Positions 14,397 to 46,944 of a stretch of 64,000 nt of DNA are shown in pieces. The DNA lies in sequence record NC_104190.1; one strand, 5' to 3'. This DNA comes from Escherichia phage IME178. The notes under the pieces were generated by a model, which was given only the letters and a program-made list of their open reading frames with translations, was not told the DNA's origin and did not search any database. The translations under genes were made by a program, and so were the position numbers. How positions within the stretch are numbered: position 1 is the first letter of the stretch; each line of letters opens with the position of its first letter.

Positions 14397-14425
14397 TTGC
14401 AGGATGCCCAAAATCTTGATATAAT
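14397..14425 (+). promoter_or_regulatory. T5-type early promoter
   Basis: TTGCAG-17-TATAAT with AT-rich leader TTGAATTGAGAGA. Confidence 0.5.
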
Positions 14426-14925
14426 ATTTATATTGAATTGAGAGACATTAGTAAAAATTGATTTTGCTAATTTTTCTTGTTTACAATCCGCGATACGGAA
14501 CAGTTAGGCTGCCCCATTAAGGGTTGTTTTAACTGTTACATGTTAGTTTTTAAACAAATAGTTAATAGAATACTTAGCGATCTGCGCCCCATAGGAACCC
14601 TGGTAAGGCCTCGAAGCAACCTAGTATGAGGTGGTTGTGAAGTGAGATGGGAGGAGTGAAAAACTACCGAGACGTGATTCTGTAAGTTATATTGCATCTA
14701 GTATGAGCTAGTATATGAAGCATTAGGTGAGCAAATCTGGCTTAGCGGCCATCCTCAAGGATTTGTGCGATATAGCAAAGCAGCAGCGCAGCGTGAAAGT
14801 GGAAGTTGCCACCCCACTTCAGTATTTGCGATTAATTTGTTGAGAAATTGACAGTAACAGTTGTTCTATTCTTTCTGAATAGTCCTAAAGAAAATTTATT
14901 TCATTTCCAACACAGGAGTATTGTT

Positions 14926-28425: not shown

Positions 28426-28915
28426 TTTCAAATTGCCCGTATATGCTTTACGGGCTTTTGTATCAATTGAGCAAGAAGGTGATTATTCCGTAATTACAAC
28501 AAGATATAATAAATATGTGCTAGATAACAGGAAGTTGCCTGGCACTTTTTCTCAACGTAGGCTTATTCTATTTGAGAAACGGAAAGAATTACCATATAAG
28601 CTCTATCCTATTAGAGGTAGAATATCAATGTTGTCTCAATTAGTTGGGTCAAAGCGTAGCCAATTTATAGATTCTGATGGAAATCTTATTAACTGGAAGA
28701 AAACTACGTTCTATGATGTTGTCACCTCTAAAGTTTTGCATTCAGCTAGAATTTATAACGGAAAATACCAATGCTATGTAGCTAAAGTTCCGTATCCATT
28801 TGTATTATCCTATGTTCCAGCTTATATAAGCTATATTCTGGTAAATAATAGCCCTGTTATTTATCAAGTCCATCAAGAGGAGCCTGAAATTCCTAGACTT
28901 AGAATAAAATTATGA
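28418..28915 (+). CDS. hypothetical protein
   Basis: 165-aa ORF overlapping polymerase stop. Confidence 0.45.
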   Translation: MLDFKLPVYALRAFVSIEQEGDYSVITTRYNKYVLDNRKLPGTFSQRRLILFEKRKELPYKLYPIRGRISMLSQLVGSKRSQFIDSDGNLINWKKTTFYDVVTSKVLHSARIYNGKYQCYVAKVPYPFVLSYVPAYISYILVNNSPVIYQVHQEEPEIPRLRIKL

Positions 28916-30264
28916 AGGTTGTTATATCTAATAAAGCCTATTTCAAGCCCGATGATGAACTTTGGGATTATTGTAGTAAGCAAACCACTTATCACATAGA
29001 GACAATGACTAGTAAATACCCTATTATGTATAAGAATAGTGGTGTTGTTGCCAAAGAGATTAAGTGGATTCCTATTACACGTCTGGACTTACTAGATGCT
29101 AAAGGAGTAAAATACGAATTAGTAGATAAACGTACATTAGCTCCGGTAGATATACCAAAACCTAAGTTCAAGCTGCGTGAAGAAGACCAGCTCCCAATAT
29201 ATGAAGAGTGCGATGATACCTGTATTATTAATGGTAAGCCTGGGTTTGGTAAAACTATCCTAGCCCTTGCACTTGCGTATAAATTTGGCCAGAAAACTTT
29301 GGTAATCTGTACGAATACATCCATTCGTGAAATGTGGGCGGCAGAAGTTCGTAAATGGTTTGGGTTTGAACCGGGCATTATAGGTTCTGGGAAATACAAT
29401 ATTGATCCACCAATTGTGGTCAGTAATATTCAAACAGTGAATAAACATGCGAATAATCTTTCTAAAGTATTCGGTACTGTTATAGTTGATGAAGTTCACC
29501 ATTGTGTGGCTACAACTTTCACTAACTTCCTAGAAATATCATGTGCTCGCTATAAAATTGGACTATCCGGCACATTAAAACGGAAAGATGGTCTACAAGT
29601 TATGTTCAAAGATTTCTTTGGATATAAGATCTTTAGCCCCCCGGTTAATAATACTGTTGCACCTACAATCCATAGGTACTCCGTACCTGTTGAGTTATCA
29701 GGAAACCAAAACGTACCATGGGCATTACGTGCTAACGATGTGTATAATCATCCTAAATATCGAGAGACTATTATAAACCTGGCACATTTATACGTGAATA
29801 TGGGGCATAAAGTACTCATTGTAAGTGATAGAACAGAGTTAATCCAAACAGTATTAGAAGCTCTTGCACAGCGTGGTGTTACAACATATGAAATTATAGG
29901 GGCAACCCACTTAGATGACCGATTAAAAATTCAGGAAGATATAGCAAAAGGTGGACCTTGTGTACTTGCAGCAGCTCAAAGCATCTTCTCTGAAGGTATT
30001 TCTCTTAATGAGTTGTCTTGTTTAATAATGGGAAGTCTCATTAATAATGAGTCTCTCATTGAACAGCTTGCAGGTCGTGTTCAACGTATTGTCGATGGTA
30101 AACTCGACCCTATTGTTGTAGATCTAATTATGAAAGGTGGCACTGGACTAAGACAGGCTTCTGGACGTATGGCAGTATATCGTAACAACGGGTGGAAAAC
30201 TATTACCATGACTCCTGAGAAAGCAGTTCAATTAGCTAAAATTGCATTTGGCAACAGCTCATAA
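28912..30264 (+). CDS. SF2 DEAH-box helicase
   Basis: Walker A GKPGFGKT, DEAH box VIVDEVHH, C-terminal helicase motifs. Confidence 0.8.
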   Translation: MKVVISNKAYFKPDDELWDYCSKQTTYHIETMTSKYPIMYKNSGVVAKEIKWIPITRLDLLDAKGVKYELVDKRTLAPVDIPKPKFKLREEDQLPIYEECDDTCIINGKPGFGKTILALALAYKFGQKTLVICTNTSIREMWAAEVRKWFGFEPGIIGSGKYNIDPPIVVSNIQTVNKHANNLSKVFGTVIVDEVHHCVATTFTNFLEISCARYKIGLSGTLKRKDGLQVMFKDFFGYKIFSPPVNNTVAPTIHRYSVPVELSGNQNVPWALRANDVYNHPKYRETIINLAHLYVNMGHKVLIVSDRTELIQTVLEALAQRGVTTYEIIGATHLDDRLKIQEDIAKGGPCVLAAAQSIFSEGISLNELSCLIMGSLINNESLIEQLAGRVQRIVDGKLDPIVVDLIMKGGTGLRQASGRMAVYRNNGWKTITMTPEKAVQLAKIAFGNSS

Positions 30265-30276
30265 ATGATGTATAAT
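30248..30276 (+). promoter_or_regulatory. T5-type promoter with leader but no downstream ORF
   Basis: TTGGCA-17-TATAAT then ACACATAAATTTGAGAGAGAAAG leader, then hairpin. Confidence 0.45.
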
Positions 30277-30348
30277 ATACACATAAATTTGAGAGAGAAA
30301 GTTTCGGATTGATAAGAAAGTCCGAAGCAGAAAAATAAAAAATTTTAG

Positions 30349-30378
30349 TTGCTAAATTCTCTCGAAATCTAGTATAAT
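30349..30378 (+). promoter_or_regulatory. T5-type early promoter
   Basis: TTGCTA-18-TATAAT then conserved leader ATACATAAATTCGAGGAG. Confidence 0.5.
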
Positions 30379-30485
30379 ATATACATAAATTCGAGGAGAA
30401 AATAAAAATTAAATTCTTCGATTATGAAAAGCTATACTTACTAGCTAGAGGAAATTCCGACCTAATTATTAAGCTATTCAAAAGA

Positions 30486-30770
30486 ATGCTTACAGAGCCT
30501 GATGCTCACCAATTATTGGTCGGTTCCTCATTCATTTTGAATGAATCAACAATAGTTGATAATCCAAATAAATTGTCTAATAGACAACTGGCAGAATATC
30601 TAGGAATTTTAAGTCTACGAAATTATGCCGAATACAAGTTTACAAACGATCCTAGTTTGGACATACAATATGTTCCAGTATGGATACCACGTTTAGTAAT
30701 CGACACTAACCCACTAATCGCAATTAACAAATCGAAATTAATCTTTAAAGAGGAAATAAAATATGGCTAA
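30486..30770 (+). CDS. hypothetical protein
   Basis: 94-aa ORF from ATG 30486 with weak RBS; frame is open upstream to 30378 and a conserved-leader RBS sits before in-frame ATT 30408. Confidence 0.4.
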   Translation: MLTEPDAHQLLVGSSFILNESTIVDNPNKLSNRQLAEYLGILSLRNYAEYKFTNDPSLDIQYVPVWIPRLVIDTNPLIAINKSKLIFKEEIKYG

Positions 30771-31536
30771 GTCTTGGGGCGAAACTACTGGCGGTTCTAA
30801 CGATAAAATCGAATTCCTGAAGTTCAACAACGGTATCACTCGTGTTCGTATCGTTTCTGGTGTTCTTCCACGTTATGTCTATTGGCTGACTAATAAAGAG
30901 GGTAATGTAGCTCCTTTCGAATGTCTCCGTTTTAACCGTGACAAAGAGAGCTTTGTTCGTGGTAAAGCTGATCCGGTTCATGAGATGGGCTTTTTCGAGA
31001 AAGAGCTGGATAAAGACGGTAATCGTGTTCCGCTGAAACCGAAGAAAAACTATATCGCTTTTGTTATCGACCGTTCTGATAACAAACTGAAAGTAATGGA
31101 AGTCAAGGCTACTATTCTGAAAGGCATCCAGTCTATCATGAAGCAGTTGAATCTGGCAACTCCGTTTGATATTGATATTTCTATCGAGAAAAAAGGTAAA
31201 GGTTTCGATACTGAGTATGATGTACAGCAGATTGCTGCTATGCAGTTCCAGATTAAGCTGCAAGATCCCAACAGTGCAGAATCTAAGCAATACGCTGCAG
31301 ATGTAGATCTGATCGGTGAAGCTATGTGTGATGGAGATGGCGACATCATTAAGTTCGAAAAAGTTCCTTCTCTGGAACAAACTTATCCGGTTCCTACCTA
31401 TGAAGAGCAGAAAGAAGCAATTCAAGCCTTCATGGAGGGTCGTGAGAATAAAGATGATGATGCCAAATCTGGTAATAGCAATGCAGGCTCCCAGAAAGGT
31501 ATTGACACAGAAGCTGCAAGCGATCTGGACGACTAA
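30763..31536 (+). CDS. gp32-like single-stranded DNA-binding protein (putative)
   Basis: N-terminal KIEFLKFNNGITRVRIVSGVLP resembles the T4 gp32 KLKLDNAGNGQAVIRFLP region; acidic C-terminal tail (EAASDLDD); optimal codon usage. Confidence 0.5.
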   Translation: MAKSWGETTGGSNDKIEFLKFNNGITRVRIVSGVLPRYVYWLTNKEGNVAPFECLRFNRDKESFVRGKADPVHEMGFFEKELDKDGNRVPLKPKKNYIAFVIDRSDNKLKVMEVKATILKGIQSIMKQLNLATPFDIDISIEKKGKGFDTEYDVQQIAAMQFQIKLQDPNSAESKQYAADVDLIGEAMCDGDGDIIKFEKVPSLEQTYPVPTYEEQKEAIQAFMEGRENKDDDAKSGNSNAGSQKGIDTEAASDLDD

Positions 31537-31572
31537 TAAATAGAGGGGCTTCGGCCCCTTTCTTTTTAACCA

Positions 31573-46872: not shown

Positions 46873-46944
46873 AGTTAATTTCTCCTCTTTAATAACAATA
46901 TTATAATAGTATTAGAAAATTTTATCAAGAAATTTTTATTTTTC

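Follow-up and report, generated by a model that had tools for sequence, protein, structure and literature searches.

The locus between the D10 helicase gene and the T5.125 homolog of Escherichia phage IME178 (NC_104190.1) raises two questions. What does a promoter do when no start codon follows its leader, and where does a gene begin when its strong ribosome-binding site (RBS) precedes ATT? We addressed these questions in a window of 64,000 nucleotides (nt), which is the whole stretch of DNA analyzed and the source of all coordinates below unless another locus is named. We find that the two promoters at this 143-nt gap probably form the tandem front end of a two-gene early operon, comprising the T5.125 homolog, a small gene of the replication module, and the D11 single-strand DNA-binding protein (SSB) gene, and that the first of these genes would be translated from AUU at 30408. 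The 651 bases around the locus match 439 phage records, of which the best are 99% identical Tequintavirus genomes, while a second band at ~89% consists of Epseptimavirus. On these matches, the window belongs to a T5-like phage (Tequintavirus).

Tandem promoters P31A and P31B

The following features make up the promoter region and the end of its predicted transcripts.

30248-30276, + strand: promoter P31A, with -35 box TTGGCA, a 17-bp spacer and -10 box TATAAT; 11 of 12 positions agree with consensus; P31A in the NC_005859 annotation.
30283-30300, + strand: initial transcribed sequence of P31A, AUAAAUUUGAGAGAGAAA; a motif found after 7 window promoters, RBS-like and without a start codon.
30329-30348, + strand: A/T-rich tract, read as an UP-like element of P31B; comparable aaaattt-type tracts occur in the window.
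30349-30378, + strand: promoter P31B, with -35 box TTGCTA, an 18-bp spacer and -10 box TATAAT; 10 of 12 positions agree with consensus; P31B in the NC_005859 annotation.
31542-31570, + strand: intrinsic terminator closing the P31A/P31B-T5.125-D11 operon; found by the terminator scan and annotated in T5.

P31A and P31B are already known promoters. By sequence and position, those in the window are direct orthologs of the annotated T5 pair, and P31B is also recorded as T5P38 in AY587007. A first-pass annotation of this DNA had placed the first promoter correctly and described it as part of an orphan unit. The label does not hold, since this promoter is the upstream member of a tandem pair whose -10 boxes lie 102 bp apart. 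P31A is also the top-scoring site of a 10-kb promoter scan.

The two promoters share an extended module with others in the window. Generic promoter-like sites are not enriched over shuffles (5 observed, 4.0 expected). The extended module TATAATATAnACATAAATT is enriched: the window has 7 copies where 0.45 would be expected, a count that none of the shuffles attained. Its shared form, TATAAT-ATAnnCATAAATT-GAGAG, occurs at at least 7 window promoters, and in a typical copy the leader passes directly into an RBS and ATG. The P31A leader is labeled "repeat c copy 7" in the second T5 record, AY587007. On this comparison, the RBS-like GAGAGAGAAAG is a component of the promoter module, that is, a conserved initial transcribed sequence. 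As had been noted, neither ATG nor GTG follows in the P31A leader. The sole candidate, a TTG open reading frame (ORF) of 9 codons at 30309, was rejected: its TTG sits at the stem-loop junction of the hairpin described below, and its counterpart in Sugarlandvirus is in another frame.

P31A and P31B have the hallmarks of T5-type early promoters, namely an A/T tract, an AT-rich discriminator and the initial transcribed sequence AUAAAUU(U/C)GAG. The discriminator consensus of early promoters is ATATT (Klimuk et al.). In the T5 N25 promoter, the segment from -12 to +2 reads TATAATAGATTCAT (PMC7472727), and the native AT-rich initial transcribed sequence of N25 promotes rapid promoter escape (PMC12464699). 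Because the module is homologous to N25, transcription would start at A 30283 from P31A and at A 30385 from P31B; a literature search returned no start-site data for the P31A/P31B locus. An aaaattt-type tract also precedes the -35 box at most window promoters. The A-rich tract between the two promoters, formerly assigned to a noncoding unit, is thus better read as the upstream element of P31B.

The terminator scan reports no terminator-like site from 30276 up to 31542, after D11. Therefore, P31A transcripts should read through into the T5.125 homolog. The simplest reading of the region is a tandem promoter pair driving the T5.125-D11 operon, in which two strong sigma-70 promoters of standard T5 design, ~100 bp apart, would both transcribe to the terminator at 31542.

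Two further sites in the window bear on these modules. At 14397-14500 (+ strand), a second promoter-leader unit, TATAAT atttatattgaattgagagac, has no ORF behind it, and ~45 nt further on stands a TTGCTA...TACAAT promoter-like site, a layout that resembles P31A/P31B. At 46928-46872 (- strand), a promoter is followed by attaaagaggagaaattaactATG, the leader that was copied into the pDS/pQE expression vectors; a strong RBS and ATG at 46900 (- strand) have a 9-nt Shine-Dalgarno-to-start spacing, equal to that at ATT 30408. In falkor-type Epseptimavirus (locus L003, 973-1503, and locus L097, 273-803), the helicase gene and P31A are separated by an inserted HNH homing endonuclease gene. After the insertion, identity to the window resumes exactly at AAAATTGCATTTGGCAAC, which is the upstream edge of the P31A module.

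The hairpin between the promoters

One feature remains once the promoter modules are accounted for.

30301-30328, + strand: 10-bp stem-loop with arms GUUUCGGAUU and AGUCCGAAGC and loop GAUAAGAA; three G.U pairs on the + strand.

By our delimitation of the modules, this 28-nt hairpin is the only sequence left over from them. Its arms (30301-30310 and 30319-30328) pair around an 8-nt loop; the hairpin had been recognized before, correctly except for its stem, which is 10 bp rather than 8 bp long. The folding energy of the + strand RNA is -14.0 kcal/mol (z = -5.4), a stability that 0 of 200 shuffles equaled. The - strand RNA reaches -5.3 kcal/mol (z = -1.7), and is weaker because three of the + strand pairs are G.U.

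The hairpin lies in a strongly conserved block. Over the 79 nt that run from the P31A -10 box to the A-tract, no fixed difference separates Tequintavirus-type from Epseptimavirus-type sequences, where the flanks predict ~10 (P = 3e-5). Most of this block consists of promoter parts, and for the 28 nt of the hairpin alone the probability of no fixed difference is 0.026. Sugarlandvirus, at 66% protein identity, retains the stem, in which one U.G pair has become C-G, and shortens the loop to 3 nt; three metagenomic lineages retain shorter versions. The 3' arm is conserved as sequence; true covariation is minimal. Two further observations are neutral or count against a function. Among T5-type genomes there are five singleton stem variants, of which three break a pair and two pair only as wobble, and in one 82%-identical lineage the stem is degraded (z = +0.3). 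We conclude that the hairpin is a real, + strand-biased structure of the P31A-specific leader and a putative element. In the tandem-promoter reading, it would link the two promoter modules and occupy positions +19 to +46 of the P31A leader, the longer of the two.

Could P31A instead produce an RNA of its own? A noncoding transcript of ~45-65 nt, ended or processed at or after the hairpin and serving as a small RNA or decoy, would suit the stability and strand asymmetry of the hairpin, the invariant 79-nt block and the retention of the stem in Sugarlandvirus. The first-pass annotation had favored such a transcript. However, no U-run follows the stem, which is succeeded by CAGAAAAAUAAAAAA, and the terminator scan reports the 31542 site but not the hairpin. 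An Rfam scan of the region gave two chance-level matches only (E >= 1). The conservation, moreover, falls mostly on promoter parts, three of the five stem variants break pairs, and the upstream promoter of other lineages must read through to express the gene. We therefore regard a separate P31A RNA as unlikely.

A role for the inverted repeat as DNA appears less likely still. It would lie at -84 to -57 from the P31B start, as a regulator site just upstream of the UP-like tract, and its sequence is strictly conserved; unknown factors are known to shut off T5 early transcription (PMC7472727). Yet the arms rely on G.U pairs, which count as mismatches in duplex DNA and on the opposite strand, and arm spacing shifts from 8-12 nt to 3-6 nt in related genera, unlike that of a dimer operator.

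Other structures were considered and rejected. In the window, the P31A leader (UUUGAGAGA) is predicted to pair over a distance with the P31B spacer (UCUCUCGAA), but two Epseptimavirus mismatches disrupt this pairing and are uncompensated. A hairpin hiding the Shine-Dalgarno sequence, with AUU in its loop, is also predicted, but the z-score of the region is only -1.0. Separately, locus L102 carries an array of three promoters, and the -10 box of the middle one is flanked on both sides by the arms of a 15-bp inverted repeat, CTACTCCGTCAAATT / AATTTGACGGAGTAG (473-560).

ATT 30408 is homologous to ATG starts and fixed in the T5-type clade

Four features define the start region of the T5.125 homolog.

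30393-30398, + strand: Shine-Dalgarno sequence GAGGAG, 9 nt upstream of ATT; anti-Shine-Dalgarno duplex -8.9 kcal/mol.
30408-30410, + strand: ATT, proposed start codon of the T5.125 homolog, from homology to standard starts and linkage to the Shine-Dalgarno sequence.
30408-30770, + strand: proposed complete reading frame of the T5.125 homolog (PHROG 4258), with 120 codons and a stop; full profile match and AlphaFold2 model.
30486-30488, + strand: ATG, encoding Met27, the start in public records (94 residues); no Shine-Dalgarno sequence before it.

The second promoter is present as first described, and so is its RBS, which lies 9 nt before an ATT that is in frame with ATG 30486 and 26 codons upstream of it. 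The frame opens at 30378, after TAA at 30375-30377, and holds no standard start upstream of ATT. The RBS at the ATG is as weak as had been supposed: the anti-Shine-Dalgarno duplex energy there is -0.6 kcal/mol, against -8.9 kcal/mol at ATT and a median of -5.9 kcal/mol for 43 long window ORFs. Translated from ATT, the 120-residue protein covers positions 1-120 of 120 in PHROG 4258 (E = 7.5e-62). PHROG 4258 is the Demerecviridae family encoded between helicase and SSB; the window protein matches it at full length, and its T5-type members are annotated too short.

We show that ATT 30408 aligns with the standard starts of relatives. In Epseptimavirus, the sister genus, ATG occupies exactly this codon and the gene is annotated with 120 residues. 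Among IMG/VR sequences, 28 loci split cleanly into 22 with ATT and 6 with ATG; ATT is always accompanied by GAGGAG, and ATG by the weaker GAGAGA. In nearly every other lineage of the family, the codon aligns with an ATG, GTG or TTG start. GenBank homologs from six genera (phages of Klebsiella, Proteus and Providencia, and three of Vibrio) all use the homologous codon as their start; it is GTG in one (D232) and ATG in the other five. Conservation across the family extends over the 26 N-terminal residues: these homologs have the motif M-x-F-F-D-Y-E-K-I-Y-L-L-x-x-G in common, and L12, G15 and L19 do not vary. Met27 is not conserved; four of the six have Leu there. Comparison with homologous loci, which the first-pass annotation had named as a check, thus supports the ATT start.

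The N-terminal extension shows the signature of a translated sequence. The 120-codon frame is open in each of the 28 unique ATT-type sequences of good quality; the sole exception among ATT-type records is an "UNVERIFIED" one with many indels. Across codons 2-26 (~16 synonymous and ~59 nonsynonymous sites), changes within the ATT clade comprise 5 synonymous and 2 nonsynonymous (P = 0.006), or 7 and 4 (P = 0.003) when the divergent ATT carrier AKM_HA2021_32 (L097) is included. The ratio of nonsynonymous to synonymous rates (dN/dS) in the ATT clade is ~0.11 for these codons, the same as for codons 27-120. These counts indicate that the 26 codons between ATT and ATG are under purifying selection within the ATT clade.

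ATT is also fixed in the T5-type clade, as judged by a 55-nt probe designed so that each 28-mer seed spans the third base of the codon. The T version matches 210 GenBank phage records and the G version matches none. In addition, a metagenomic lineage at 56% amino-acid identity has ATT at the homologous codon behind AAGGAG, and the start in its closest relatives is TTG. A neighbor-joining tree separates the two ATT groups; therefore, ATT arose at least two times.

We conclude that a non-AUG start at ATT 30408 is well supported by comparative evidence. A non-AUG start and a lost ATG had been offered as alternatives, and both hold: Epseptimavirus has ATG at this codon, and selection persists on the codons behind it in the ATT clade. 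This supports a history in which the ancestral ATG was lost, yet the T5.125 homolog is still read from that codon. Its product would have 120 residues, not 94, with initiation at AUU behind GAGGAG. No tRNA genes were found in the window, so none encoded there would explain the ATT start.

Other start codons were rejected. ATA 30402 is confined to the window and a single further variant, T5 having ACA at that site, and it lies only 3 nt from the Shine-Dalgarno sequence. For ATT 30465 or 30468, codons 2-19 alone still show 4 synonymous versus 2 nonsynonymous changes. Elsewhere in the family, a metagenome contig (3300028829_003282; L093, 1486-1503) has ATA at the Met1-homologous codon, and GAGGGG precedes it by 6 nt. 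A TTG that overlaps the -10 box is the one standard start in frame there, and the ATA may be another non-standard start in the family. The homolog of a 115.7-kb T5-like genome (IMGVR_UViG_2974604416; L091, 1501-1863) contains three in-frame TAG codons at otherwise conserved positions, which could reflect TAG recoding or a pseudogene.

The predicted protein structure includes the extension. The AlphaFold2 model of the 120-residue protein has a high confidence (predicted local distance difference test, pLDDT) of 94.5, and residues 1-29 form a strand and two helices with a block pLDDT of 96-98. According to the model, these residues are part of the fold, and therefore a 94-residue product would miss part of it. 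A Pfam search of the T5.125 homolog gave no match, fold comparison gave weak winged-helix-like matches only, and a search of a viral structure library returned solely uncharacterized members of the T5.125 family.

Several points weigh against initiation at AUU. AUU normally initiates very poorly, so that the gene could yield next to no protein. The polymorphisms counted within the clade are few (7-11 events) and come from mutually related sequences. The transcription starts, read-through from P31A, initiation at AUU and the dosage rationale given below are inferred from sequence. Furthermore, a CRISPRi-ART screen scored T5.125 as "Not Fit" (PMC11879866), which is compatible with a dispensable gene. 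In that screen, the T5.125 guides were centered on the annotated ATG (T5 position 75724), 78 nt downstream of the proposed start (T5 position 75646), and D10 was likewise scored Not Fit (PMC11879866). With its guides on the wrong start, the dispensability verdict on T5.125 needs re-testing.

The annotated start deserves the same scrutiny. If the gene began at ATG 30486, the upstream open frame would be an untranslated relic of the lost ATG, in agreement with the 94 residues annotated in all the T5-type records examined, with the general weakness of AUU as an initiator and with the Not Fit score obtained from guides at that ATG. Set against these are the missing Shine-Dalgarno sequence (-0.6 versus -8.9 kcal/mol), the variable residue 27, the purifying selection on codons 2-26 inside the ATT clade, the 28 unique sequences free of stops and frameshifts, and a Shine-Dalgarno sequence before ATT that is stronger than in the ATG relatives. 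The modeled place of residues 1-29 in the fold points the same way. A start at ATG 30486 is thus improbable. That T5.125 is a decaying pseudogene in the T5 clade, as the lost ATG and one copy labeled "partial" might suggest, is very hard to reconcile with a frame intact in all good-quality genomes, a dN/dS of ~0.11 along the whole 120 codons, and ATT fixed in 210 records with a strong Shine-Dalgarno sequence.

Public annotation almost uniformly presents the short form. T5-type protein records hold almost only the 94-residue version, and a collection of 15 billion sequences contains no exact copy of the 120-residue protein. The protein cluster includes a 77-residue call (GEC_vB_N5), and the NCBI pipeline gives one 125-residue copy, labeled "partial", that reads EEKTKIKFFDYEK... 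Homolog records of Proteus phage PM135 (L074, 92 residues) and Vibrio phage pVp-1 (67 residues) are truncated. We rejected the PM135 record as a true short form: it is a plain mis-call, since codon 1 of the locus is a normal ATG. Therefore, short calls in this family extend beyond ATT carriers. A literature search found nothing specific on T5.125, on AUU starts in T5-like phages or on P31A transcripts. AUU-initiated genes are already known as a kind; what is proposed here is a correction to the T5 reference annotation. The gene model would change from 94 to 120 residues for the reference phage T5 and more than 200 relatives, adding a natural AUU start in a model phage that comparative evidence supports well.

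Start-codon placement in relatives and likeness to known systems

The operon is flanked and completed by the following genes.

28912-30264, + strand: D10 helicase gene; ORF list, PHROG 16 DNA helicase and T5 annotation.
30763-31536, + strand: D11 single-strand DNA-binding protein gene; ORF list and profile match; own Shine-Dalgarno sequence.

The last codons and stop codon (30262-30264) of D10 lie inside P31A, the D11 start overlaps the T5.125 stop by 8 nt, and SbcD/SbcC-like genes follow D11. The order of helicase, PHROG 4258 gene and SSB is conserved in relatives.

In Sugarlandvirus and eight metagenomic lineages, nine in all, 0-4 nt separate the proximal TATAAT from the start codon (ATG or TTG) that follows it, and AGGA, AGGTG or AAGGAG stands just upstream of this -10 box. 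Transcription normally begins ~7 nt past the -10 box. Therefore, transcripts from the proximal promoter in these lineages cannot include the start codon of the T5.125 homolog. We infer that only the upstream promoter supplies translatable mRNA for this gene there, and that the proximal mRNA is translatable for SSB only. Tandem promoters upstream of the gene recur in many genera, 92-102 bp apart in most lineages. The role of the upstream promoter in relatives gives the supposedly orphan promoter a plausible job.

Promoter-overlapped starts, together with ATT, TTG and GTG starts, suggest that the protein is kept scarce relative to SSB. In the T5 clade, because AUU is a very weak initiation codon discriminated by initiation factor IF3, it would hold the T5.125 homolog low while the same mRNAs give abundant SSB. 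More tentatively, this could extend across the family. It is possible, although we would not call it probable, that throughout Demerecviridae the winged-helix-like protein is deliberately under-translated relative to the SSB of the same operon, through interchangeable devices. These devices would be AUU starts, with at least two origins; TTG and GTG starts; and start codons inside the proximal -10 region, where the strong proximal promoter would give SSB-only mRNA and the upstream promoter the translatable mRNA. Under such a scheme, AUU in T5 would make synthesis depend on IF3 availability during infection, and the leader stems, local in T5 and formed around the UP/-35 region elsewhere, would act as RNA elements that only the upstream-promoter transcript carries. 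Together, the AUU start and the promoter-overlapped starts of relatives suggest a mechanism, open to testing, by which one operon could set the ratio of its two protein products.

The locus can be compared with three known systems. T5 promoters of the PN25 type consist of an A/T tract, a TTGCTA-like -35 box, a 17-18 bp spacer and TATAAT followed by AUAAAUUUGAGAGAG, and P31A and P31B match this design (PMC7472727, PMC12464699). Unlike the usual PN25-type promoter, P31A has a leader with no start codon after it, which runs via the hairpin into a second promoter. The rrn P1/P2 promoters stand in tandem in front of a highly expressed operon and, as here, two promoters ~100 bp apart serve one operon. 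Unlike in rrn, the proximal promoter overlaps the translation start of the first gene in many relatives, so that the coding capacities of the two mRNAs would differ. Finally, E. coli infC, which encodes IF3, and pcnB are the classic AUU-initiated genes. The T5.125 homolog resembles them in having AUU behind a good Shine-Dalgarno sequence where relatives use AUG, and by analogy its expression is expected to be low and IF3-dependent. It differs from them as a phage early gene with no evident autoregulatory logic, in which the use of AUU is predicted from sequence.

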